Part shown: positions 2,257 through 13,507 of the stretch, piece by piece
How positions within the stretch are numbered: the stretch's first letter is position 1
Layout of the letters: each line of letters starts with the position of its first letter
Source of the DNA: a virus
Taxonomy: Duplodnaviria; Heunggongvirae; Uroviricota; Caudoviricetes
Strand: one strand, 5' to 3'
IMG/VR virus record: IMGVR_UViG_2534681663_000023
Location: 1-13,507 of that record
DNA: 13,507 bases
Made by a program: the position numbers and the translations under genes
Notes under the pieces: model-generated
The model's input: the letters and a program-made list of their open reading frames with translations, nothing else
Told to the model about the DNA's origin: nothing
Databases searched by the model: none

Positions 2257-2673
2257 TCAGCTAGAATGGAAACCTTCTGCGACTTCAGCGAAGTAGCTGA
2301 GCAACCTAGTATCTCTTGCTGGCATACGATCGTGAGCTGGAGTGACTAGCCCCATCAGCAAAAAACGCCCGCTATCCCACATGTGCTCGGTATAAACGAG
2401 ATAGTGGTTTGAGGTTCGGTTGTAGTTCTCTTGCCTTGCGTTCCAGGTAAGCTGGAAATGCAAATTGACGTGAATATGCTGGACATTAGCATCAACGGCG
2501 AACGGCGGGAAGTCAAATGGCGCATCTCGTCCAAGAAGATTAGATGGTGCGCCAGTTGATTTGTAAGTAATGAACTCGGATTTGAGCTGACTTTCTAGGT
2601 CAGGGTAAACGACAAAAGTGGGCTGAAAAAAATCATCCCACGTAACTTGACTGTATTCAGCCGTTAATGCCAT
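2257..2673 (-). CDS. YafO-like type II toxin (putative ribosome-dependent mRNA interferase), 138 aa
   Basis: Blocks recalled from E. coli YafO appear in the same order: ITYKSTG...LLGRDAPFDFP, HIHVNLH, HYLVY, ARD. The start ATG overlaps the stop of the upstream gene (ATGGCATTAA). Identification is from memory and needs a profile search. Confidence 0.5.
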   Translation of the reverse strand: MALTAEYSQVTWDDFFQPTFVVYPDLESQLKSEFITYKSTGAPSNLLGRDAPFDFPPFAVDANVQHIHVNLHFQLTWNARQENYNRTSNHYLVYTEHMWDSGRFLLMGLVTPAHDRMPARDTRLLSYFAEVAEGFHSS

Positions 2674-3212
2674 TTAGCCGCAGCCTTGTTGCCAGTCTCT
2701 AATAGATGGTTCATGGCTAAAAGGTTGACACCAGAGTCACGCACTACAGAAGTGCGTGTAATCTGATCAATCAGATTGAGATAGTTTTTGGTCGCAATAC
2801 TGACCATTTTAATAGCCTTAAAAAACGCAAACTCAACAGTGTTTTTTTCGTAAGACATGATGACGTCTTTTTCAGGTAACATCAAAACAAAAGATTCTGC
2901 GATACCGGCTACATGAATAGTTTGATTCTTAATTTCTTCCGCTACTTTGATAGCAGCAAAGAAGTCAGTGTCAGCATAATGAGCAAGTTCAGCGCGGCTT
3001 GAACGCAGTTCTTTAGCCAATTCATTGAGAGCAGCTGTAAGATCACTGATGTCGGTTTTGTTGACTCTAGCGCCCATCTCATAAACCCGTTCTACAATCG
3101 TAGGCTGACACGCAACCGCTTTGGGTTGCGGCTGGATACTGGCAAGAACCAGTGCCACTGCTGCCTGCAAATGCTGGATTTTAAATTTCACGATAGACTC
3201 CATAATCGTCAT
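2664..3212 (-). CDS. Hypothetical protein (182 aa), translationally coupled upstream partner of the YafO-like toxin; possible atypical antitoxin
   Basis: ORF track; 8-nt overlap with the toxin start; no recognisable domain by eye; much larger than YafN or Phd-type antitoxins. Confidence 0.45.
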   Translation of the reverse strand: MTIMESIVKFKIQHLQAAVALVLASIQPQPKAVACQPTIVERVYEMGARVNKTDISDLTAALNELAKELRSSRAELAHYADTDFFAAIKVAEEIKNQTIHVAGIAESFVLMLPEKDVIMSYEKNTVEFAFFKAIKMVSIATKNYLNLIDQITRTSVVRDSGVNLLAMNHLLETGNKAAAKWH

Positions 3213-3293
3213 TTCTCGACGAAGCGTAGCATTCTACTACTGAACTTAACTATAAGCTAAAAAAAGTTGGTTGCATATGCGACTTGATAGCAA

Positions 3294-3320
3294 AAAGGGG
3301 CCGAAGCCCCTTTGGATTTT
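3294..3320. terminator. Bidirectional rho-independent terminator hairpin (GGGGC-CGAA-GCCCC) flanked by A/T runs
   Basis: On the minus strand the stem is followed by TTTTTG, which would terminate the tRNA-Asn transcript before the toxin module; on the plus strand it is followed by TTTGGATTTTG. Confidence 0.5.
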
Positions 3321-3387
3321 GCGCTGAAAAAAGTGTTGCTACGATGCTTAGAAGCAATGGTTAAAAAACGTCTGCCGTGTCTATCAC

Positions 3388-3462
3388 AGCGCTGAACGGT
3401 CTGGCGACATTTGCGGAGTCTTTCGTTCGGACGGTGGTGGCGAATCCAAACCGTTCAGCGCT
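3388..3462. repeat. Perfect 13-bp inverted repeat AGCGCTGAACGGT / ACCGTTCAGCGCT enclosing 49 bp, immediately 3' of the tRNA
   Basis: Read directly from the sequence. Lies between the tRNA 3' end (3467) and the terminator; could be a processing or structural element, or a small repeat element. Confidence 0.6.
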
Positions 3463-3466
3463 ATGT

Positions 3467-3541
3467 TGGCGATGGTGGGTGGACTCGAACCACCGACCAG
3501 TTGATTAACAGTCAACCGCTCTACCACTGAGCTACACCATC
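3467..3541 (-). tRNA. tRNA-Asn (anticodon GTT), 75 nt with encoded CCA
   Basis: Manual fold of the minus strand: acceptor GATGGTG/CACCATC, D-arm GCTC-AGTGGTA-GAGC, anticodon stem GTTGA/TCAAC with loop CTGTTAA (U33, GTT, A37), variable TGGTC, T-arm GGTGG-TTCGAGT-CCACC, discriminator G, CCA. Confidence 0.85.
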
Positions 3542-3704
3542 ATTTTCGCGGCGGTACTAGCTTATGGACAACCAGGCAGCCAGAAACTTTCCCGTAACTT
3601 GCACTTTACGTTAGTGCCAGACGAGGTATGTGGCTCGCTCATATGAGCGAAGATCTCGAATCTTTCTCGGTGGTTGATTGCCGTTAGATTCTTCGATCTT
3701 ATTG

Positions 3705-3719
3705 GATGTATGGAATCAT
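3705..3719. repeat. 15-bp direct repeat GATGTATGGAATCAT, copy 1 of 2 (second copy at 4725-4739)
   Basis: Exact 15-bp identity read from the sequence. Its reverse complement ATGATTCCATACATC carries the recurring motif. Copy 1 sits within the local palindrome ATGTATG-GAAT-CATACAT. Confidence 0.7.
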
Positions 3720-3790
3720 ACATGTTGTGAAGCCAGGGGCAATAAAGGCAACAATGTTTTCACTAGAGGGTTAATTAATCCTGCTTTCAC

Positions 3791-3900
3791 AACGTTGAGA
3801 TCACTGAACCGATTAATGTTCAACCCAACATATTGATCAGTCGCTACAGCTATGTGGAATCGCCTGTATGATTTTAAGAAAAATCAGTGATCTCAACGTT
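3791..3900. repeat. Perfect 17-bp inverted repeat AACGTTGAGATCACTGA / TCAGTGATCTCAACGTT separated by 76 bp, in an ORF-free region
   Basis: Read directly from the sequence; arms at 3791-3807 and 3884-3900. Candidate structured RNA or miniature inverted-repeat element. Confidence 0.65.
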
Positions 3901-4266
3901 ATGTGCTGACTAACCAAGTCAGCCGGGTTACGTCGCCGCTTTTAACCCAAGTATAAACGACATAAGTAATGGAAATGACGTAACAGAATGGACGGTCAGC
4001 TGAAACCGGGATGGGGGAATGGAATGATGAAACCAACCGCCCATTCTGTTACTTCATTGAATGGGGCATGGATGGTGCAATATGCCCTATTCTGCGTTCT
4101 GCAATCACACTCGCTCAGTGTGTCCCATTTTGGTGACGAGGCTGGAAACTGACCTCGCTGGTGTTTGGCTTCTTAGGCTACTGCCAGGTATGCATCTTCG
4201 TTTGCAGTTATATTTAACGTTCAAACAGTCGCATCTCAACGAAAACAAAGTGATCTTATACATATT

Positions 4267-4290
4267 AGATAAGTAAGTAAATACTTATCT
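4267..4290. terminator. Possible weak hairpin (AGATAAGTA / TACTTATCT, 6-nt loop) at the end of the small-ORF operon
   Basis: 9-bp AT-rich stem overlapping the stop of the 101-aa ORF; no strong U-run, so terminator function is uncertain. Confidence 0.25.
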
Positions 4291-4590
4291 ATCTGTGATG
4301 CGTTTAGTTGCTATCTTTTTGATCAGGCTCCCCTTTTGTTCCGAAGTTCTCATGATGATGGCGGTAAAACGCTTCGCTTGAATAGTGATAGTTTCGTTTT
4401 CCTTGAGTTCGCCGTAATGCGTCTCTAACAGGGACCCCAGACGCCACAGACCGTCGTCTATGCGTTTATGGCTGGCGAATCTGATCAGCAGTAGCTTTAC
4501 GATTAACTGACCAATGTAAAAGGCAAATCCGAAGCCGGCCGCCACAAGGTAGGTTGCCAGCCACCAGTCGAAGGAAGTCAAATTGCTCAT
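4285..4590 (-). CDS. Hypothetical small membrane protein (101 aa), last gene of the coupled small-ORF chain
   Basis: ORF track; N-terminal hydrophobic stretch WWLATYLVAAGFGFAFYIGQLIVKLLLI; its ATG overlaps the stop of the upstream 50-aa ORF (AAATGAGC). Confidence 0.45.
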   Translation of the reverse strand: MSNLTSFDWWLATYLVAAGFGFAFYIGQLIVKLLLIRFASHKRIDDGLWRLGSLLETHYGELKENETITIQAKRFTAIIMRTSEQKGSLIKKIATKRITDR

Positions 4591-4739
4591 TTTCGCACTC
4601 CCGTCTCGTGAACAACCCGATACACACGCTTACCGACACGAAGTGTTTTGGTTTGCAGTTCCTGCTGGACCAGGGCGCGGCAGATTGCGAGGCCGAGGCC
4701 CACGCCACCAGTAAAAGATAAAATGATGTATGGAATCAT
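4587..4739 (-). CDS. Small ORF (50 aa, below track cut-off): MIPYIILSFTGGVGLGLAICRALVQQELQTKTLRVGKRVYRVVHETGVRK; small membrane protein or relic of a sensor-kinase 3' end
   Basis: Translated by hand. Start ATG overlaps the stop of the 70-aa ORF (TGATG); stop overlaps the start of the 101-aa ORF. The GC-rich segment encodes GVGLGLAICRALV, reminiscent of the histidine-kinase G2 box. The start codon lies inside repeat copy 2. Confidence 0.35.
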   Translation of the reverse strand: MIPYIILSFTGGVGLGLAICRALVQQELQTKTLRVGKRVYRVVHETGVRK

Positions 4740-4951
4740 CAGTGCGCCCCCGCCTCAGTCAATTGCTGCAACAACAAATAACCTTTTTCAGTCAGTTGAT
4801 AGTTCTCAATACATCCCTTTGGAGAAACGTTGGCGACAAGATTCATGCGCTCCAGTTTGGCTCTGGTCTTCGGCTTCCAGTTGGCGTAGAACTCCTTCCA
4901 CTTGCTGATTTCACGCAGGGTTTCCTTCTCTCGTTTACTTAACATGCTCAT
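4739..4951 (-). CDS. Hypothetical small soluble protein (70 aa), possibly winged-helix-like
   Basis: ORF track; overlaps the 3' end of the 59-aa ORF and is coupled to the 50-aa ORF. Charged, helical-looking sequence (LSKREKETLREI ... LTEKGYLLLQQL). Confidence 0.45.
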   Translation of the reverse strand: MSMLSKREKETLREISKWKEFYANWKPKTRAKLERMNLVANVSPKGCIENYQLTEKGYLLLQQLTEAGAH

Positions 4952-5114
4952 CCTTAATCTCCTTCAGTGTGTCCGTGATATCTACTATGCGATAAATACG
5001 ACCTCGCCTTTGCATGACACCGGCTTTTACGTAATCGTGGATACAGCTGGACATAACCAGACTTCCGATAACAATGCCGACGACTAAAAATACAAACATC
5101 CAGCCGAGCATCAT
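4935..5114 (-). CDS. Small ORF (59 aa, below track cut-off): MMLGWMFVFLVVGIVIGSLVMSSCIHDYVKAGVMQRRGRIYRIVDITDTLKEIKDEHVK; predicted single-pass membrane peptide
   Basis: Translated by hand. Its ATG (5114-5112) overlaps the TGA (5113-5111) that ends the reconstructed native ligase frame (ATGA overlap). Confidence 0.4.
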   Translation of the reverse strand: MMLGWMFVFLVVGIVIGSLVMSSCIHDYVKAGVMQRRGRIYRIVDITDTLKEIKDEHVK

Positions 5115-5156
5115 TCTTTATCTCCAATACGATCTTCGGTATCTCGAAGACATTTA
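5111..5156 (-). other. Displaced native 3' end of the ligase gene (encodes ...CLRDTEDRLGDKE-stop), separated from the gene body by the transposon
   Basis: Joining the sequence right of the right-hand ATTTA to the sequence left of the left-hand ATTTA keeps the ligase frame open for 13 more codons and ends at TGA 5113-5111. Confidence 0.55.
5152..5156. repeat. Target-site duplication ATTTA, left copy (right copy at 10797-10801)
   Basis: Identical 5-bp sequence immediately outside each terminal inverted repeat; 5-bp duplications are typical of Tn3-family transposition. Confidence 0.8.
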
Positions 5157-5194
5157 GGGGAGCCCGCAGAATTCGGAAAAAATCGTACGCTAAG
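5157..5194 (+). repeat. Transposon terminal inverted repeat, tnpA-proximal (38 bp); contains the tnpA stop codon
   Basis: GGGG...ACGCTAAG architecture typical of Tn3-family ends; tnpA stop at 5190-5192 lies within it. Confidence 0.85.
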
Positions 5195-8156
5195 GTTTTC
5201 CGGGCATCCGTAAGGGCCGAAACTTCCCGTCTTCCAGTCTGCGGCTCTGCCGCCAGACGTAATCGCCGGTTAGGTTGATGTGCTCCCAGCCCAGCGGCGA
5301 CAGGAATTGCAGCAGCTCGCCGTCCACCGGCTTGCCGGCCTCGACCAACCCCTGGGTGGCGCGTTCCAGGTACACCGTGTTCCACAGCACGATAGCCGCC
5401 GTCACCAGGTTGAGGCCGCTGGCCCGGTAGCGCTGCTGCTCGAAGCTCCGATCCCTGATTTCCCCAAGGCGGTTGAAGAACACCGCCCTGGCCAGCGAGT
5501 TGCGCGCCTCACCTTTGTTCAGGCCGGCATGCACGCGGCGGCGCAGTTCAACACTTTGCAGCCAGTCCAGGATGAACAGCGTGCGCTCGATCCGGCCCAG
5601 CTCGCGCAGGGCCACGGCCAGTCCGTTCTGGCGCGGGTAGCTGCCGAGCTTGCGCAGCATCAGCGAGGCGGTGACGGTGCCCTGCTTGATCGAGCTGGCC
5701 AGGCGCAGGATGTCGTCCCAGTGGGCACGCACGTGCTTGATGTTCAGGGTGCCGCCGATCAGCGGGCGCAACGTCGGGTAGGCTTGCACGCCCTGCGGCA
5801 CGTACAGCTTGGTTTCGCCGAGGTCGCGGATGCGCGGCGCGAAGCGGAAGCCTAGCAGGTGCATCAGGGCAAAGACGTGATCGGTGAAGCCGGCCGTGTC
5901 GGTGTAGTGCTCCTCGATCCGCAGGTCGGACTCGTGGTACAGCAGGCCGTCGAGCACATAGGTGGAATCGCGGACGCCGACATTCACCACGCGGGTGCTG
6001 AACGGCGCGTACTGGTCGGAGATATGGGTATAGAACAGCCGTCCCGGCTCGCTACCGTACTTCGGGTTGACGTGCCCGGTGCTCTCGCCCCGGCCACCCG
6101 CGCGGAAGCGCTGGCCATCGGAGGATGAGGTCGTGCCGTCGCCCCAGTGGGCGGCAAAGGCGTGGCGATACTGGTGGTTGACCAGCTCGGCCAAGGCCGC
6201 CGAATAGGTTTCGTCGCGGATGTGCCAGGCTTGCAGCCAGGACAGCTTGGCGTAGGTCAGGCCGGGGCTCGACTCGGCCATCTTGGTCAGCCCGAGGTTG
6301 ATCGCATCACCGAGGATTGCGGACAGCAGCAACGTCCTGTCTTTGGCCTCGGCCCCGTCCTTCAAGTGGGTGAAGTGGCGGCTGAAGCCCGTCCAGTCGT
6401 CCACGTCCATCAGCAGTTCGGTGATCTTGATGCGCGGCAGTAACTGGCTGGTTTGGTCGATCAGCGCCTGCGCCCGATCCGGCACCGCCGCATCCAGCGG
6501 GGGGATTTTCAGCCCTGACTCGGTGAGGATGGCATCGGGCAGCTCGTTGTCCTTGGCCAGGCGGGTGACGGTGGCCAACTGCTCGTCCAGCAGCTGCAAA
6601 CGCTCTTCCAGGTACTGGTCGCTGTTCGGGTTGATCGCCAGGGGCAGGGCCTGCTCGCGCTTGAGTGCGGCGAACTTCTCGGCCGGCAGCAGGTAGTCGT
6701 CGAAGTCGCGGAACTGCCGCGAGCCCTTGACCCAGATGTCGCCGGAGCGCAGGGCGTTCTTCAGCTCGGACAGGGCGCAGATTTCGTAGAATTTCCGGTC
6801 GAGGCCTTCCGGGGTGATCACCAGCGGCTTCCAGCGCGGCTTGATGAAGGCCGTGGGTGCATCGGCCGGCACCTTGCGCAGGTTGTCGGCGTTCATCTCA
6901 CGCAGGGTCTGCACGGCTGCCAGCACGCCTTGCGCGGCCGGCGCGGCGCGCAGTTCCAGCACCTCCAGCAAGGCCGGCGTGTAACGGCGCAGGGTGGCGA
7001 AGTTCTCGCCGACCAGGTGCAGGTGGTCGAAGCCTTCCGGCCGGGCCAGCAGCTCGGCCTCGCTGACGCTCTCGGTGAACTCGTCCCAGGGAATCACCGC
7101 CTCGATGGCGGCATAGGGGTCGCTGCCGCTTTCCTTCGCTTCCAGCAGCGCCTGGCCGATCCTGGAGTACAGGCGCACCTTGTCGTTGATCGCCTTGCCC
7201 TGCTTCTGGAACTGCTGCTGATGCTTGTGCTTCGCGCCGCTGAACAGCTTGACCAGGATGCGGTCATGCAGATCGACCAGCTCATCGATCACGGTCGCGG
7301 TGCTCTCCAGCACCACGGCGGCCAGGGTCGCGTAGCGGCGCTGCGGCTCGAACTTACCGAGGGCTTTGGGCGTCATCTGCCCACCCTCGCGGGCCAGCTT
7401 GAGCAGGCGGTTCTGGTGGATGTGCCGGCCCAGGCCTTCGGGCAAGTCCACCAACTGAAATGTCTTCAGCCGCTCGATGTGTTCCAGCATGTGCCGAGAG
7501 TTGGGTTTCAGCGGTGCCTGGCGCAGCCAGGTCAACCAGGTGATGCTGCTGCCGGCCTTGAGCTTCAACAGCTCGTCCAGCTTGGCCCGATGCGAGTCCG
7601 TGAGTGGTTCGACCAGGGCGCGGTAGACCCGCCGATTGGCTCGCGCAATGGCTTCCGAGCAGGCCCGGTCAATCACGCTCAGCGCCGGCAGGATGCGTCG
7701 TTTCTGCCGTAGGCTCTCCAGGGCCTGACCGGCCAGCAGCAAGCCTTTGTCGGTCTGCTGGGCCAGCTCGGTTAGCTCGCGCACCAGGGCGCGGAAGTCG
7801 GACAGGCCGAACGGGGCCAGTTGCAGGTAGGTGCGCAGTTCCTGGGCATGCTCGCGACGGGTCACGTCGCGCTCGCCGTACTTTGCCCAGCTCGCCGGCT
7901 CGGCCTGGACTTGCTTCGCCACCCACAGGATGACCGGCTCGGGCAGCTCGCTGTCGGTTCCCAGCGCGTAACCGGGGTAGCGCAGCAGGCAGAGCTGCAC
8001 GGCGAAGCCGAGGCGGTTGGCGTCGCCGCGTCGCTGGCGGATCAGCGACAGGTCGGAGTCGTTGAAGGTGTAGTAGCGGATCAGGTCATCCTGGCTTTCC
8101 GGCAGCGCAAGCAGGGTGTCCCGCTCCGTGGCCGAGAGGATCAAGCGACGCGGCAT
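5190..8156 (-). CDS. tnpA: Tn3-family transposase TnpA (988 aa)
   Basis: Length and sequence ([44 protein letters not shown]...) match Tn21/Tn501-type TnpA as recalled; very GC-rich relative to its surroundings; terminates inside the terminal repeat. Confidence 0.95.
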
Positions 8157-8159
8157 GTG

Positions 8160-8720
8160 TCAGTCGTCCGTGCGGAGGTACTGGTAGAGGGTTTCCCGGC
8201 TGATGTTGAACTCGCGGGCAAGCTGCGCCTTGGGCTCGCCGGCCGTCGCTCGCTGCCGCAGGGTAGCAGCCTGCTCATCGGACAGGGCTTTCTTGCGGCC
8301 CCGGTACGCGCCACGCTGCTTGGCCAAGGCGATGCCCTCACGCTGCCGCTCGCGGATCAGGGCGCGCTCGAACTCAGCGAAGGCCCCCATCACCGACAGC
8401 ATCAGGTTGGCCATCGGCGAGTCCTCGCCAGTGAACACCAGGCCCTCCTTCAGGAACTCGATGCGCACGCCGCGCTGAGTCAGCTTCTGTACCAAGCGAC
8501 GCAGGTCATCGAGGTTGCGGGCCAGCCGATCCATGCTGTGCACCACCACTGTATCGCCTTCGCGGACGAAGCTCAGCAGCGCTTCGAGCTGGGGGCGCTG
8601 GGTGTCCTTGCCCGATGCCTTGTCGGTGAACACCTTGCTCACCTGGGTTTGTTCCAGCTGGCGTTCCGGGTTCTGGTCAAAGCTGCTGACCCGGACGTAG
8701 CCGATGCGGTGCCCCTGCAC
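8160..8720 (-). CDS. tnpR: Serine resolvase TnpR (186 aa)
   Basis: N-terminal serine-recombinase motif (IGYVRVSSFDQNPERQ), C-terminal HTH (ISRETLYQYLR); sits directly upstream of tnpA in the same orientation, as in the Tn21 subgroup. Confidence 0.95.
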   Translation of the reverse strand: MQGHRIGYVRVSSFDQNPERQLEQTQVSKVFTDKASGKDTQRPQLEALLSFVREGDTVVVHSMDRLARNLDDLRRLVQKLTQRGVRIEFLKEGLVFTGEDSPMANLMLSVMGAFAEFERALIRERQREGIALAKQRGAYRGRKKALSDEQAATLRQRATAGEPKAQLAREFNISRETLYQYLRTDD

Positions 8721-8724
8721 GATG

Positions 8725-8900
8725 TCTCCTTGGTTGAAGGCGGCTTAAGTGCACTTTCTGTTCCGTTGTGCCTCAAAGCCCATTTCTGTCAGGCTGAAAT
8801 CTATAACCTTCGCGGGCATGTGTCAAAAAATGGGAAAGCAGACTCTATTCTGACGAAGCGGCGCGGCCCTGCCTGACATCAAGTTAGGGTATAGCCTAGA
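8725..8900. promoter_or_regulatory. Putative res (resolution) site and tnpR promoter region
   Basis: Lies immediately upstream of tnpR and contains several TGTCA/TGACA half-site-like repeats (TGTCAGGCTGAAAT..., CATGTGTCA, CTGCCTGACATC). Exact subsite boundaries not determined. Confidence 0.5.
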
Positions 8901-9029
8901 TTGACATGCGCGATGCAACCCTTAACTTGCTTGCACCTATCGTTTCCATGCTAGCTTTATCGTAACGCTCAAGAAATTGGGCTTAATGCCGAAAACAATA
9001 AAATAAAACAGCCAACCCTTGAGGTTCTT

Positions 9030-10607
9030 ATGCGCCAGAATTTACCAGTGACGGGTCGAAACTTAGAACTCCCAAAAGATGCCAATATTCTTTCGACTAC
9101 CTCCCCTCAAAGCCATATCACGTACGTTAATCCTGACTTCATTAAAATCAGTGGTTTCACTGAGGAAGAACTATTAGGCCAGCCTCACAACATCGTAAGA
9201 CACCCAGATATGCCGCCTGCTGCATTTGAGCATATGTGGAGTACATTAAAATCTGGCCGCTCATGGATGGGGCTAGTAAAAAATCGCTGTAAAAATGGCG
9301 ACCACTATTGGGTAAGTGCTTATGTAACGCCAATAGCTAAGAATGGTTCGATTGTTGAATACCAGTCTGTAAGGACCAAGCCTGAACCTGAGCAGGTTTT
9401 GGCTGCGGAAAAATTATATGCTCAATTGAGAAGCGGGAAGGCCGCGAGGCCGAAATTGGCTGCTAGCTTTTCCGTGAAAATACTCTTGCTCATATGGGGT
9501 AGTATTATATCAAGCGCAATGGCTGCCGGCATGCTTACTGATACATCAATAAGCAGCTTATTGTTAGCCACTTTAATGTCAGGAAGCTTAAGCTCTGTTA
9601 GTGTTTTGGCTATTCTCTCTCCTCTTGGAAGACTGGTTGAAAGAGCCAGGAATATTTCCAATAACCCATTAAGTCAATCCCTCTACACTGGGCGCACCGA
9701 TGAGTTTGGCCAAATAGAGTTTGCTTTACGAATGATGCAAGCTGAAACAGGCGCCATAGTAGGTCGCATAGGTGATGCATCAAATCGGCTTAGCGAACAC
9801 ACCCGAGGCCTACTAAAGGATATTGAGTCAAGCAATGTACTTACAGTTGAGCAGCAGGCAGAGACAGATCAAATAGCAACGGCAGTAAACCAAATGGTGG
9901 CAAGCATTCAAGAGGTTGCGAGCAATGCACAGCATGCTGCAGATGCGGCCGGAAGAGCAGACACTGAGACGGCATCTGGCCAGCGTCTGGTAGCCCACAC
10001 AAGCCAGTCAATCACTGCCCTTGAAGGTGAAATTAGGCAAGCCACTCAGGTTATTCATGAGCTTGAAGGTCAAAGTAACGAGATATCAAAAGTTCTTGAC
10101 GTTATACGAGGGATCGCCGAGCAAACGAATTTGTTGGCACTCAACGCAGCAATTGAGGCCGCGCGTGCTGGTGAGCAGGGGCGTGGTTTTGCTGTTGTCG
10201 CCGATGAGGTTCGCAGTCTTGCTGCTCGCACACAGCAATCGACAACGGATATTCAAAGCATGATCAGCGCTCTACAAGAGCGAGCGCAATCCGCTGTTAC
10301 AGTCATGGAGCAAAGTAGTCGGCAAGCGCACACGAGTGTAGCTCACGCAGAGGAAGCAGCTACAGCTCTTGATGGAATTGGCCAACGCGTTAACGAAATT
10401 ACCGACATGAACGCGCAAATAGCGACTGCGGTCGAGCAGCAGGGAGCAGTAAGTGAAGACATAAACCGCAGTATTATCAATATACGCGATGCTGCTGATA
10501 CCAATGTACAGACCGGGCAGAATAATTTGCAAAGTGCGAAATCTGTCGCTCAGTTAACTAGCGCTCTGAGCGAACTGGCAAAACAGTTTTGGGAAAAACG
10601 AGGATAA
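9030..10607 (+). CDS. aer: Aer-like aerotaxis receptor (N-terminal PAS, membrane hairpin, methyl-accepting chemotaxis signalling domain), 525 aa; transposon passenger
   Basis: N-terminus closely resembles E. coli Aer PAS ([68 protein letters not shown]); hydrophobic hairpin near residues 150-195; conserved signalling core ([32 protein letters not shown]). Confidence 0.85.
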
Positions 10608-10626
10608 CGCTTTTCAGTATCTCGAC

Positions 10627-10661
10627 AGGGATAACTTACTTTACCATCGGTTATCCCTTTT
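10627..10661 (+). terminator. Rho-independent terminator after the chemoreceptor gene
   Basis: Hairpin AGGGATAAC-(14 nt)-GTTATCCCT followed by TTTT, about 20 bp after the stop codon. Confidence 0.5.
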
Positions 10662-10740
10662 AGCCGCACAAATTTTAGCCATGGCTTTTCAGGAAGTCAG
10701 GGCTATCAGAATGGCCTTAGAAAGCCTAGTCAAAGAGCTG

Positions 10741-12078
10741 TCACGAGAACACCGTTAGCTTAGCGTACGATTTTTTCCGAATTCTGCGGTTCCCCCATTT
10801 AGGCCACTTCAGACGTGGATGACGCAAGCTACCATCTGGCGTTTTCTCATGGCAGTGAACCTCAACGATGCGTCCACGATACTTCTCCTGATTGTTCCAG
10901 ATTTCATCCAGGTATTTATGCTTGATACCGCTGGCACGAACGATGACGCCGTTCTCCAGACGAATCACTATCTTGCCTAGCGTATGCGCAAATCCAGAAT
11001 CCGGATCGCCAGGCTCGAAGTCGATGATTTCACCGTCTTCTGAATCCTCGTCTTTCAGCTTCCACCAGCTGCGGGTACGTTTGAACTCGTAAACTGAATC
11101 CGGATCTTTGCCCATCTCTCCCTCTTCATTCTCGTCCAGTCGCTTCATGAAACGTTCGATGAAATCTTCGTGGCTATGGATGATGTAGAACGGATGAAGG
11201 TGGATATCTTGCGCATAATCTTCCACGCAAGTGTTGCGGAACAACGCCACCAGCATAGCCAGGCGCTCTTTCAGCTTCATACCGGTCTTCAGGTACTCTT
11301 TGCTTTTTGCTTGAGCACGCCACTCCGGTAAGAAGAAATCGAAAATGTGGTAAACGGCACCAATGGCTTTCACGTTCTTCTTACGAAGCGCCGACACTGA
11401 CTGGTTGAATGTACCTGCAGTGCCCTCTCCATCGAAGAAGATGTGATTGAAGCCGGAGAGTCTGCCCCGCTCCAGCATGGCTGGTTTAAGGTGATCGAGT
11501 GACGTAATCGGATTGCCGGTGCGCGTCAGGAAATTGACCTCACCCTCGTCCACGATGACTTCGCAGATAACCCGGAGACCATCGAGTTTGAGACTGCCGA
11601 TCATTGGCCACTTGGCCTTTGGATTTGGTTTAAATGGGTATTTGTCGCCTTTCTCCTTGTACGGAGACGCCAGCTGTACCTCAAACTTCGGAATTGGGTT
11701 TTCGAACACCTTGTTGCACAGGCTGATGCCGACACCGGCTTTCGGATCTTTCAGCAGGAAGCGACGAAACACGTCCTGCCCGTCAGCGCACATCGAGGCA
11801 ACGAGTGATTCGACAGCAGCAATAGCGATGTTCCCGGTCAGTTCGCGCGCTGCCAGCTTCTCCAGCAGATCTACTACCTTCTGGTCGCTGGGTACGGAAG
11901 TATCGAGTGGCTCGGCCACTTTGTACTTCTTCACACCGAATCGAATGAATGGATTGAGCATTAGCGAGACCATGCTCTGTTCAAATTCATCCAGATTGGC
12001 CAGCGCCTCTTTCTTGGCGTTGGTTCCCATCGTTTTAATAGCATCCAGCTTGTGCTTTAGGGCGATCAGTTTTTCCAT
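10741..12078 (-). CDS. T4-type ATP-dependent DNA ligase; 3' end interrupted by the transposon (last 18 codons of this ORF are read from the ATTTA duplication and terminal repeat)
   Basis: Nucleotidyltransferase motifs in order: I KLDGLR, III FFDGEG, IIIa YHIFDF, IV EGEMGKD, V WWKLK, VI LRHPRL. N-terminal region parallels T4 ligase as recalled (LTGNIAIAAV, ISLCNKVFENPIP, LASPYKEKG). GGAGG lies about 10 nt upstream of the ATG. Confidence 0.85.
   Translation of the reverse strand: MEKLIALKHKLDAIKTMGTNAKKEALANLDEFEQSMVSLMLNPFIRFGVKKYKVAEPLDTSVPSDQKVVDLLEKLAARELTGNIAIAAVESLVASMCADGQDVFRRFLLKDPKAGVGISLCNKVFENPIPKFEVQLASPYKEKGDKYPFKPNPKAKWPMIGSLKLDGLRVICEVIVDEGEVNFLTRTGNPITSLDHLKPAMLERGRLSGFNHIFFDGEGTAGTFNQSVSALRKKNVKAIGAVYHIFDFFLPEWRAQAKSKEYLKTGMKLKERLAMLVALFRNTCVEDYAQDIHLHPFYIIHSHEDFIERFMKRLDENEEGEMGKDPDSVYEFKRTRSWWKLKDEDSEDGEIIDFEPGDPDSGFAHTLGKIVIRLENGVIVRASGIKHKYLDEIWNNQEKYRGRIVEVHCHEKTPDGSLRHPRLKWPKWGNRRIRKKSYAKLTVFS
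10759..10796 (-). repeat. Transposon terminal inverted repeat, passenger-proximal (38 bp)
   Basis: Reverse complement matches the tnpA-proximal repeat at 35 of 38 positions; followed immediately by ATTTA. Confidence 0.85.
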
Positions 12079-12112
12079 TAGTGTTTAACCTCCATCGGTC
12101 GCTCGGGAGTTT

Positions 12113-12589
12113 TCATGTGTTTTCTTTGGTTGCTTCTTCAATGAGTGCCGCGTACACGTCAGTGACCGGCGCCAGTGAATCGGTGGGCTTGGTTTCGGAT
12201 TTAGCAGGTTCTGTTTTCTTCGTGCGATGAATAAGACTGTCAATTGTCGCGGTGTTTCGCTTCCGGGGGAGCGTTCTGGCATGGTCGTTTTGCTCTTCCA
12301 CTTCTTTGATAAGTGAAGACATATCGATGAAGTAGAGCTGTTCGTCTTTGCGGATCTCTTCGACCATCATTTTCAGTGCCTGACATTTACCAGCAGCAAT
12401 AGCCGCAGCGCAGGACTGGAACGATGTAGCCGGGAGACGTTTTTCTTTATAGGCGAGGATCGTGTGTTGGCAGACTGTATAGCTGCAATGAGCCTCATGG
12501 CCGTTGAGCTTCACTTCCGGGCAGCGCAGCGAATAACCGTTGTTTCCGGAGATAGACGGGATTTTCGACAAATCTGTTCTTGTGGACAT
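12113..12589 (-). CDS. Hypothetical Cys/His-rich protein (158 aa), possible zinc-binding; directly upstream of the ligase
   Basis: ORF track; cluster RCPEVKLNGHEAHCSYTVCQH...CAAAIAAGKC; 34-bp gap to the ligase start, same strand. No family recognised. Confidence 0.45.
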   Translation of the reverse strand: MSTRTDLSKIPSISGNNGYSLRCPEVKLNGHEAHCSYTVCQHTILAYKEKRLPATSFQSCAAAIAAGKCQALKMMVEEIRKDEQLYFIDMSSLIKEVEEQNDHARTLPRKRNTATIDSLIHRTKKTEPAKSETKPTDSLAPVTDVYAALIEEATKENT

Positions 12590-12636
12590 GCTTCTAACCG
12601 TAATCTTGTACTTACTTATTAATCGCAGTTTAAAGA

Positions 12637-12653
12637 AGCCCCACGAGGGGGCT
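12637..12653. other. Short GC hairpin (AGCCCC-ACGAG-GGGGCT) between the upstream gene and the 158-aa gene
   Basis: Read from the sequence; no convincing U-run on the minus strand, so it may be an attenuator or structural element rather than a terminator. Confidence 0.25.
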
Positions 12654-12670
12654 AAATGTTTTATCGAGGC

Positions 12671-13069
12671 TTACCAGGTCGCCCAGCCAGTCATTTTGTC
12701 CTGAGCAGCTTCGAACCGGTATGGGTCCAGTAAATCGTTGGTACGATGAACGGCGTAGGATTTGGCTTCTTGTTTAATCATGGGTAATTCGTTGGCCAGA
12801 CGAGCCACTTGCCCTGCAAAACTGGCGAGTACTCCGTCACATGCCTGACCCGCGTCGACAATGATGCGCACCAGGTCTAAGTCGCTGCGGCACATATCGC
12901 AGATAATGCCGTATTCCACCTCACGAATGCGCTCAACGGCTTTTTTGATATCGCCACTGACCACCAATTCCAGCAAACCAGGTGGAGTTGTCAGATCTGT
13001 TACGCGCTCGGTAACTTCAGACTGTTCGACAATACTCAGGAACGCCGCGATGGACGGGTCATCCGCCAC
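12671..13069 (-). CDS. Hypothetical protein, probably the C-terminal part of a larger gene truncated by the IS3-family insertion
   Basis: The annotated start is GTG with no clear RBS; the frame stays open for 19 more codons upstream (ERFEDIVDATLRTLKVRAG...) right up to the IS boundary at 13127. No family recognised. Confidence 0.4.
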   Translation of the reverse strand: MADDPSIAAFLSIVEQSEVTERVTDLTTPPGLLELVVSGDIKKAVERIREVEYGIICDMCRSDLDLVRIIVDAGQACDGVLASFAGQVARLANELPMIKQEAKSYAVHRTNDLLDPYRFEAAQDKMTGWATW

Positions 13070-13126
13070 ACCAGCTCTGACTTTGAGCGTGCGAAGAGTT
13101 GCGTCGACAATATCCTCAAACCGTTC

Positions 13127-13507
13127 TGAACCGCCCCGGAAATCCTGGAGACTAAACTCCCTGAGAAAGAGGTAAACAGGATGACTAAAAATACTCGTTT
13201 TTCCCCCGAAGTCCGTCAGCGGGCGATTCGTATGGTTCTGGAAAGTCAGGATGAATATGACTCACAGTGGGCGGCAATTTGTTCCATTGCCCCAAAGATT
13301 GGCTGTACGCCGGAGACTCTGCGTGTCTGGGTTCGCCAGCATGAGCGGGATACCGGGGGCGGTGATGGTGGGCTCACCAGCGCTGAACGTCAGCGTCTGA
13401 AAGAGCTGGAACGTGAAAATCGTGAACTGCGCCGCAGTAACGATATCCTTCGCCAGGCTTCCGCTTATTTTGCGAAGGCGGAGTTCGACCGCCTCTGGAA
13501 AAAATGA
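13127..13507 (+). mobile_element. IS3-family insertion sequence (IS629/IS1203-like), left end; continues beyond the window
   Basis: Terminal sequence TGAACCGCCCCGGAAATCCTGGAG... followed about 55 bp later by an OrfA-type gene; matches the IS629-like left end as recalled. Confidence 0.8.
13181..13507 (+). CDS. IS3-family transposase OrfA (108 aa, HTH plus leucine zipper)
   Basis: [23 protein letters not shown]...[34 protein letters not shown] is the typical IS3 OrfA; ends at an A6 run before TGA, consistent with the programmed -1 frameshift site into OrfB, which lies outside the window. Confidence 0.9.

Follow-up and report, generated by a model that had tools for sequence, protein, structure and literature searches.

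We identified a complete Tn1722-type unit transposon inserted within the gene for a T4-like ATP-dependent DNA ligase, in the backbone of an SSU5/pHCM2-type phage-plasmid of E. coli, by analysing a 13,507-nucleotide stretch of DNA (hereafter the window). The boundaries of the element, its identity, the duplication of its target site and the corresponding empty site in relatives could each be shown, as could the three-domain, T4-like nature of the ligase, and no evidence contradicts the insertion itself. For the account as a whole, including the consequences that we propose below for the ligase and for the genes downstream of it, we estimate a probability of about 93%. Descriptions already exist of the element, of the phage-plasmid backbone and of the locus as one prone to insertions, and the event is an ordinary one rather than a novel one.

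Boundaries and identity of the inserted element

An initial annotation of the window had proposed a transposon with 38-bp terminal repeats and a 5-bp ATTTA duplication in the last codons of a ligase gene. Both features were located and directly abut each other, delimiting an element with the following organization:

5152-5156: ATTTA, left copy of the 5-bp target-site duplication, abutting the repeat at 5157-5194
5157-10796: complete Tn1722-type unit transposon (Tn3 family; "TnAs1 family" in PGAP labelling), 5,640 bp
5157-5194, plus strand: terminal inverted repeat, tnpA end, IRR-I type, 38 bp, GGGGAGCCC...
5190-8156, minus strand: tnpA, 988-aa Tn3-family DDE transposase (Pfam DDE_Tnp_Tn3, PF01526, E 3e-155; DUF4158, E 1e-53)
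8160-8720, minus strand: tnpR, 186-aa serine resolvase (Pfam Resolvase, PF00239, E 3e-39, and HTH_7)
8721-9029: tnpR-mcp intergenic region, with the presumed res site and divergent promoters
9030-10607, plus strand: passenger gene orfI/mcp, 525-aa PAS-HAMP methyl-accepting chemotaxis-like protein (Pfam MCPsignal, E 7e-44, PAS_3 and HAMP)
10759-10796, minus strand: terminal inverted repeat, mcp end, IRL type, 38 bp, GGGGGAACC...
10797-10801: ATTTA, right copy of the target-site duplication, abutting the repeat at 10759-10796

The two repeats, the first of which includes the stop codon of tnpA, agree at 35 of their 38 positions, with the IRL deviating at three, and no other inverted-repeat pair in the window comes close to them in length or quality. 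Both begin with GGGG and have the length of about 38 bp required of Tn3-family elements of the Tn1721 type. The GC content of the element (approximately 0.65-0.67) is set off from that of its flanks (approximately 0.45-0.50). The tnpR-mcp spacer at 8721-9029 has the position in which res is expected in Tn3-family elements, and it is on this basis that we presume the site to lie there; the same spacer contains promoter-like hexamers at 8826-8798 (minus strand) and 8873-8902 (plus strand), from a scan whose counts did not exceed those of shuffled controls.

Tn1722 and Tn1721 are known to have 38-bp repeats, to generate 5-bp duplications and to carry an IRL that is mutated relative to IRRI and IRRII (PMC5736529). 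The element in the window is like Tn1722 in its length, its repeats with a divergent IRL, its 5-bp duplication and its gene set of tnpA, tnpR and orfI/mcp. Furthermore, it is 100% identical across all 5,640 bp to at least 25 annotated plasmid copies among the matches listed. In PLSDB, 80% or more of its length occurs in one place in 365 records. Based on these sequence comparisons, the element is Tn1722, the 5.6-kb "minor transposon" of Tn1721, from which it shows no difference of its own, the insertion site alone being particular to this strain. With all of its parts intact, it would be expected to have transposition activity.

Reconstruction of the interrupted ligase gene

The insertion splits the ligase gene after codon 427 of 440 and leaves the following arrangement:

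4285-5114, minus strand: four small overlapping ORFs of 59, 70, 50 and 101 aa (PHROGs 4381, 4054, 6302 and 4507)
5111-5156, minus strand: orphaned 3' end of the ligase gene, encoding CLRDTEDRIGDKE, the RxDK half of motif VI
10741-12078, minus strand: chimeric ligase ORF, 445 aa

The chimeric ORF comprises 427 native codons followed by 18 that run through the duplication and the IRL and then 15 nt further into the transposon, in agreement with the 18 transposon-encoded residues noticed earlier. It scores 46.2 bits with DNA_ligase_A_M (PF01068), for which the cut-off is 26.2, and matches PHROG 114, ATP-dependent DNA ligase, with an E-value of 2e-122. The orphaned segment opens with the duplicated 5 bp, which supply the T of codon 426, all of Lys427 and the initial base of codon 428, and continues with codons 428-440 and the TGA. 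The initial annotation had further held that deleting 5157-10801 restores the original gene exactly, and this is borne out: the deletion in silico yields a 440-aa ORF ending in ...RHPRLKWPKCLRDTEDRIGDKE, whose TGA stop (5113-5111, minus strand) runs into the ATGATG that opens the next ORF. Its rendering of the rebuilt tail requires correction at a single residue, the translation being ...DRIGDKE rather than ...DRLGDKE (ATT encodes Ile). We suggest annotating the ORF at 10741-12078 not as an intact ligase but as a ligase pseudogene or chimera disrupted by a transposon, and 5157-10796 as Tn1722. The locus is a clean, textbook case of a reconstructable insertion, and its importance beyond annotation is small.

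The uninterrupted locus, which the initial annotation had recommended seeking in related genomes, is carried with the same ligase end by many plasmids and by phage SSU5. Over 7,481 nt the rebuilt sequence runs collinear with the E. coli plasmid pEC21Z137-115K (NZ_CP101235.1), with 9 mismatches and no gaps (99.9% identity), and its gene order is common to several relatives. An exact copy of the 50-nt rebuilt junction is present in NZ_CP101235.1, whose annotation includes a 1,323-nt CDS for the same 440-aa ligase with its stop overlapping the next ATG; ATTTA, present in two copies flanking the transposon in the window, occurs once at the empty site in relatives. The rebuilt CDS is found in one piece (at least 80% of its length) in 399 of the 447 matching PLSDB records, phage SSU5 is 93% identical across 86% of the 2.7-kb ligase-side flank, and nine full-length homologues, ranging from 91% down to 54% identity, share the terminus ...CLRDxxDxxGDK(E/Q). 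Such agreement is far beyond chance. By its similarity and synteny with phage SSU5 and with IncFIB-typed, non-mobilizable plasmids of about 105-115 kb, the backbone is that of an SSU5/pHCM2-type phage-plasmid of E. coli.

The insertion itself was traced to a single record: the exact chimeric protein was found only on the 25-kb contig of the draft assembly GCA_000354975.1 from which the window derives. Searches with 500-nt queries recovered neither of the exact insertion junctions from PLSDB, nor the left junction from complete E. coli genomes. The sole full-length junction match, in cM2a p1, proved to be a different insertion located 22 bp away.

Two readings would deny that a ligase gene was interrupted at this point. 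One is that the continuity of the frame after excision is coincidental and that the ligase naturally ends elsewhere. We found no support for it, the 5-bp repeat and the open frame being the kind of observation that would count in its favor only if there were no relatives; it is refuted by the exact junction and the annotated 440-aa ligase of NZ_CP101235.1, by the 399 PLSDB records and by the tail common to the nine homologues, and we give it practically no credence. The other is that a repeated element was misassembled in a draft genome, for which one could point to the draft contig being the only record with the chimeric protein and to the junctions being unshared by complete plasmids or complete E. 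coli genomes. However, the transposon ends abut the two gene halves with a perfect 5-bp duplication and with nothing lost or gained, and misassembly is very improbable because a misjoin would not yield this; moreover, independent and equally clean Tn1722 insertions occur in closed plasmids, such as pAMPD1.

Proposed course of the insertion and fate of the downstream genes

We propose that Tn1722 entered the ligase gene of the phage-plasmid by the usual mechanism of its family, in which TnpA would have acted on both 38-bp repeats, with a 5-bp staggered cut at ATTTA, and the cointegrate thus formed would then have been resolved by TnpR at res. The ligase would have lost residues 428-440 and gained 18 unrelated basic residues in the process, with the NAD-dependent ligase of the host presumably covering the need for this activity. 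The insertion was probably tolerated because the gene lies within a known plastic, insertion-tolerant locus.

The four downstream ORFs retain the order seen in intact relatives and now lie 5.6 kb from the ligase, behind tnpA, as the initial annotation had noted. They are likely to have been uncoupled, in both transcription and translation, from the ligase operon. With tnpA running in the same direction as that operon, we posit that they could be expressed only via read-through from tnpR/tnpA, using their own ribosome-binding site, the GGAG at 5125-5122, which they have kept. A promoter and terminator scan of 4200-12700 detected no terminator-like site in the stretch from the tnpA stop (5190) to the ATG at 5114; its counts were not above those of shuffled controls, and it consequently says little on expression. 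An Rfam scan of the window recovered tRNA-Asn only. Besides Tn1722, the phage-plasmid carries an IS3-family insertion at 13127.

The ligase and the loss of part of motif VI

Among solved structures, the best sequence match of the rebuilt ligase is T4 DNA ligase (6dt1, E 4e-24); the match takes in the N-terminal DNA-binding domain of T4 ligase, with residues 13-203 aligned, and the isolated T4 DNA-binding domain (5wfy) gives an E-value of 2e-5. Motif I, with the pattern KxDGxR, is represented by KLDGLR at residues 164-169, where neither alignment shows variation at K164, D166 or G167, and R169 is invariant in one and nearly so in the other. An AlphaFold model of a protein 98% identical to the rebuilt ligase (P0001; pLDDT 88) displays helices across residues 2-124 and has as its best fold matches Pmar-Lig, the Rhizobium phage ligase and T4 ligase. 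Alignments and model together show the protein to be a three-domain T4-like ATP-dependent DNA ligase, and the earlier label "T4-type" is a reasonable one, given that T4 ligase is both the best sequence match and among the best fold matches. A compact N-terminal helical DNA-binding domain, an NTase domain with motif I and an OB domain ending in motif VI are common to it and to T4 ligase (gp30, 6DT1), Pmar-Lig (6RAR) and the Rhizobium phage ligase (9FZX). It differs from these ligases in showing only about 22-25% identity to them, and from T4 ligase in having a length of 440 aa as opposed to 487 aa and a motif VI that reads LRDTEDR at the extreme C-terminus where T4 reads RLREDK; the clamp-binding loop of T4 is not covered by the alignment.

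In T4 ligase, motif VI residues include Arg465, Asp467 and Lys468, and the motif is described as indispensable for step 1, the self-adenylylation of the ligase (PMC6212786, PMC4609770). Residues 430-435 of the rebuilt ligase align to T4 463-468, and the 13 residues lost (428-440) hold the RxDK part of motif VI, including Arg430, conserved without exception in 32 homologues with identities as low as 26%. Hence, while the initial annotation correctly positioned the insertion in the last codons, these do not specify a dispensable tail but carry the RxDK half of a catalytic motif. This half of motif VI is present in the rebuilt gene and in relatives and missing from the gene as it stands in the window, and in the alignment the chimera has no equivalent of the lost stretch. 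The version of the motif found in the SSU5 clade (LRDTEDR) is itself unusual, and its register against RxDK differs between the HMMER and MAFFT alignments. Because motif VI is needed for self-adenylylation, we propose that the chimeric ligase is probably dead or crippled, having lost step 1. Some residual activity is possible, in that the transposon-encoded tail (WGNRRIRKK...) is rich in Arg and Lys and places one Arg a single position from the lost Arg430.

Repeated disruption of the ligase gene in related phage-plasmids

Across relatives, six independent mobile-element disruptions map to the 1.3-kb ligase gene, at codons of approximately 70, 93, 109, 257, 419 and 427. The elements found to have broken it in relatives are Tn1722, a Tn1721-headed resistance region, IS100, an IS5-family element and IS26. 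Two of these are Tn1721-family insertions only 22 bp apart (codons ~419 and 427) and in the same orientation, and the closed plasmid pAMPD1 carries a clean, independent Tn1722 insertion with a TTTAA duplication. Frameshift and deletion alleles of the gene are also seen among relatives. This repeated loss suggests that the ligase is dispensable for plasmid maintenance in hosts with a ligase of their own. The three Tn1721-family insertions in the gene are oriented alike, and a nearby fourth end, in pKM69_DHA, is oriented oppositely; a bias of these elements in orientation or target site is unsupported by these three cases against one, which lack a denominator. DNA ligase and PhoH are among the gene families neighboring the single plastic locus reported for SSU5-like phage-plasmids (Pfeifer et al. 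2022, PMC9600943). The window shares with this plastic/resistance locus its backbone, the DNA-ligase neighborhood and the occurrence of Tn3-like and IS insertions, but contains a bare Tn1722, with no resistance gene, situated inside the ligase CDS and not beside it. It provides one more data point for the gathering of mobile elements around the ligase/PhoH locus in these phage-plasmids, and for the recurrent loss of their ligase.

Our reading of a probably crippled enzyme encoded in a permissive locus has to be weighed against two others, both of which we consider unlikely. The insertion might have been neutral for the ligase, with the enzyme active and only the gene order changed: merely 13 of 440 residues are replaced, the low pLDDT of the last 10 residues of the model (mean 58) fits a flexible tail, and the replacement tail resembles part of motif VI in being basic. 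Yet the replaced stretch is precisely the one that aligns with the motif VI residues of T4, it takes with it the family-invariant Arg430, and the motif is the one described as indispensable for adenylylation. Alternatively, the gene or its 3' flank might be an actively preferred target, or loss of the ligase positively selected, as could be argued from the six disruptions with two of them so close together, the common orientation of the three Tn1721-family insertions and the adjacent published plastic locus. However, four unrelated element types (of the Tn3, IS21, IS5 and IS6 families) are involved, at scattered codons, and frameshift and deletion alleles occur as well, a pattern that relaxed selection on a dispensable gene accommodates better than a sequence-specific target does; the count of disruptions comes without a denominator of insertions elsewhere in these backbones; and the end in pKM69_DHA runs counter to the others. 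Somewhat more doubtful still is the proposal that the gene is a preferred landing pad, or that its loss is selected, for example by locking the phage-plasmid into a plasmid-only lifestyle; if true, it would explain the six independent disruptions, including the Tn1721-family pair.

The IS100 case comes from Yersinia pestis pMT1/pFra, where the orthologous ligase (about 94% nucleotide identity) is broken at approximately codon 93; there the same small ORFs are closely followed, on their downstream side, by the foreign caf1 capsule locus. It differs from the insertion described here in the family of the element (IS21) and its position, and in being represented by about 43 matching Yersinia records as against a singleton.

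Tn1722 insertion in the ligase gene

Within the window, the segments 5157-5194 and 10759-10796 stand out as a single inverted-repeat pair (38 nt, 35/38 matching), the runner-up pairs being only 20-28 nt long and 71-95% matching, and ATTTA adjoins the outer side of both repeats (5152-5156 and 10797-10801), in agreement with the terminal repeats and 5-bp target duplication proposed in the initial annotation. The GC content is ~0.65-0.67 at 5500-8500 versus ~0.45-0.50 in the flanks. The inserted 5,640-bp transposon is a very common one, with 100% full-length identity to at least 25 plasmid copies from Escherichia, Klebsiella, Salmonella and Enterobacter, and at least 80% of it is found in one place in 365 records. 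Its anatomy is the same as that published for Tn1722, the "minor transposon" of Tn1721, which has 38-bp repeats and generates a 5-bp duplication (PMC5736529):

Coding features of the Tn1722 element
5190-8156, minus: Tn3-type DDE transposase (tnpA), 988 aa
8160-8720, minus: serine resolvase (tnpR), 186 aa
9030-10607, plus: divergent PAS-HAMP-MCP protein (mcp), 525 aa

The IRL of Tn1721 differs by mutations from IRRI/IRRII (PMC5736529); the mcp-side repeat (GGGGGAACC...) is of the IRL type and the tnpA-side repeat (GGGGAGCCC...) of the IRR type. As the duplicated target DNA directly adjoins IRR-I, it was Tn1722 by itself that moved, without the tet-carrying remainder of Tn1721.

The present ligase ORF (10741-12078, minus strand) encodes 445 aa. 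Because the five duplicated bases run from the last position of codon 426 through codon 427 to the first position of codon 428, this chimera retains 427 native residues followed by 18 new ones, derived, as initially noted, from the insertion (the duplication, the entire 38-bp repeat and 15 more bases). The window comes from contig AQDJ01000151.1 of the NCBI draft assembly GCA_000354975.1, the sole record with the exact chimeric protein; neither junction was found in any complete PLSDB plasmid, and the left junction is absent from the complete E. coli genomes searched.

Reconstruction of the uninterrupted gene

In-silico removal of 5157-10801 lets the frame run on from ...RHPRLKWPK into CLRDTEDRIGDKE and a stop, giving the anticipated protein of 440 aa, whose TGA (5113-5111) overlaps the ATGATG starting the next ORF; the tail originally written out was accurate but for one residue, Ile standing where Leu had been given. 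The E. coli plasmid pEC21Z137-115K (NZ_CP101235.1) is collinear with the rebuilt sequence over 7,481 nt (9 mismatches, 0 gaps), carries an exact copy of the 50-nt rebuilt junction, and has in its annotation a DNA ligase CDS of 1,323 nt that overlaps, at its stop, with a downstream CDS of 177 nt. Uninterrupted loci are widespread: the rebuilt CDS has matches in 447 PLSDB records, of which 399 contain 80% or more of it as a single segment and 36 match at 99% identity or more, while Salmonella phage SSU5 matches the 2.7-kb ligase-side flank at 93% identity over 86%. Nine homologous proteins of full length, with identities ranging from 91% to 54%, share the terminal CLRD..D..GDK(E/Q). Since both the rebuilt junction and the ligase end recur in relatives, the reconstruction is real and the continuity of the frame is not a coincidence.

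The rebuilt protein matches Pfam DNA_ligase_A_M (46.2 bits, cut-off 26.2) and PHROG 114, and its top sequence match among solved structures is T4 DNA ligase (6dt1, E 4e-24), N-terminal DNA-binding domain included, with Pmar-Lig (6rau/6rar) a close second. An AlphaFold model of P0001, a homologue 98% identical to the rebuilt ligase (pLDDT 88.2, pTM 0.71), has Pmar-Lig, a Rhizobium phage ligase and T4 ligase as top structural matches (E 1e-27 to 1e-30, TM ~0.57). Based on these matches, the architecture can fairly be called "T4-type", even if identity is only ~22-25%.

Probable consequences for the ligase and the downstream genes

The insertion does fall in the last codons of the ligase, as first described, but the content of the lost codons had been underestimated. 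HMMER aligns residues 423-435 (LKWPKCLRDTEDR) to the T4 stretch LFLPIAIRLREDK, which contains Arg465, Asp467 and Lys468, identified as motif VI residues in the T4 structure paper. Motif VI has been described as indispensable for the self-adenylylation step (step 1) of ligases (PMC6212786, PMC4609770). Across 32 homologues, the most distant at 26% identity, Arg430 never varies in our alignments, and the chimera lacks a counterpart of it. The RxDK register in the SSU5 clade is ambiguous, MAFFT and HMMER disagreeing, but whichever register is taken the candidate residues (430-435) all lie past the break. The break would thus appear not to lie within a dispensable tail and, with the motif VI candidates including Arg430 lost, we propose from the sequence that the chimera is probably (roughly three chances in four) incapable of self-adenylylation; the Arg/Lys-rich new tail may nevertheless allow some residual activity. 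In all other respects, the initial annotation was correct in both observation and interpretation.

In the window and all intact relatives, the ligase is followed by four small ORFs with overlapping stops and starts (PHROGs of the set, of unknown function: 4381, 4054, 6302, 4507):

Small ORFs 3' of the ligase
4935-5114: 59 aa
4739-4951: 70 aa
4587-4739: 50 aa
4285-4590: 101 aa

These now lie 5.6 kb from the ligase, as originally reported, with antisense mcp and co-directional tnpR and tnpA in between. From the tnpA stop (5190) to the downstream ATG (5114), a scan that did not exceed chance, and so is no proof, showed no terminator-like site, and GGAG is retained at 5125-5122; hence, read-through from the transposon could still express the four ORFs.

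Recurrent disruption of the ligase

Other members of the family carry ligase disruptions independent of that in the window:

Disruptions of the ligase gene in relatives
P0053 (fusion protein): IS26, codon ~70
Y. pestis pMT1: IS100, codon ~93
pAMPD1: Tn1722 with TTTAA duplication, codon ~109
pSTEC388_1: IS5-family element, codon ~257
E. coli cM2a p1: resistance region headed by the tet(A) end of Tn1721, codon ~419, 22 bp from the window's site

The Tn1722 of pAMPD1 (NZ_CP058356.1; locus L003, 6725-12374), a phage-plasmid ~80% identical, is complete and oriented as in the window. In cM2a p1 (NZ_JBYTPB010000002.1; loci L005, 8267-8309, and L007) the insertion flank is ATGAC, and the resistance region, seen from one end, holds IS26, IS6100, sul1, qacEdelta1 and qnrB6. 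The pMT1/pFra-type ligase (~94% nucleotide identity; ~43 Yersinia records match the ligase) is cut by IS100, with the rest elsewhere in the record (NZ_CP033692.1; L008, 4001-6915), and the pSTEC388_1 disruption lies in NZ_CP041426.1 (L009, 4001-5579). Further broken alleles among the homologues P0053, P0048, P0051, P0012, P0045 and P0007 comprise the IS26 transposase fusion (P0053, after codon ~70), a radical-SAM fusion, a fusion to an unrelated N-terminus, two frameshifts and one in-frame deletion. Together, the broken alleles suggest recurrent pseudogenisation of the ligase.

All resistance-gene insertions of SSU5-like phage-plasmids were reported to lie in one locus, with PhoH and DNA ligase among the adjoining families (Pfeifer et al. 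2022, PMC9600943), and pKM69_DHA carries a resistance region whose end lies ~590 bp beyond the stop codon of the ligase, on the downstream side. The window's insertion is another event at the edge of this plastic locus, i.e. an ordinary insertion into a region already recognised as insertion-tolerant, in a phage-plasmid family that is itself known. One could posit a specific target in the ligase, the cM2a p1 and window sites being only 22 bp apart; as the element types and positions are varied, a dispensable gene under relaxed selection fits better.

This plastic locus also harbours, in pMT1/pFra-type plasmids, the genes for the F1 capsule (caf1), which come directly after the counterparts of the four small ORFs. 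The closely related pJH51-3 (CP095457.1; L002, 488-2197) has an intact ligase; beside IS1, and ~3 kb from the region's integrase side, it retains just the mcp/IRL end of a Tn1722-type element, a further remnant of Tn1721-family activity.

Other features of the window

An IS3-family element of the IS1203/IS629 group (TGAACCGCCCCGG...) extends into the window with its left end, at 13127-13507; it matches copies in Stx2a-converting phages at 100% identity and carries a 108-aa orfA (13181-13507; Pfam HTH_Tnp_1 match recorded for the gene). It breaks a ~270-aa hypothetical gene intact in pEC21Z137-115K (L001, 7526-8338), leaving a truncated ORF (12671-13069). Backbone matches all end at 13126; the window ends inside this element and the draft contig probably does too.

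A tRNA-Asn (GTT) gene (3467-3541, minus) on the phage-plasmid backbone is flanked by short strong hairpins (3385-3465, 3788-3903, 3974-4058) in an ORF-poor stretch (3213-4284); in SSU5-like elements, Tn3-like insertions have been noted "near tRNA loci" (2025 preprint). The stretch 2257-3212 (minus) holds the gene for a YafO-family toxin of 138 aa and, overlapping it on the upstream side, an ORF of 182 aa that gave no Pfam or PHROG match and is possibly the antitoxin partner of the toxin. This pair is replaced by PhoH in pJH51-3 and by glutaredoxin and Gp49 in pAMPD1, showing how variable this integrase-to-ligase interval is.
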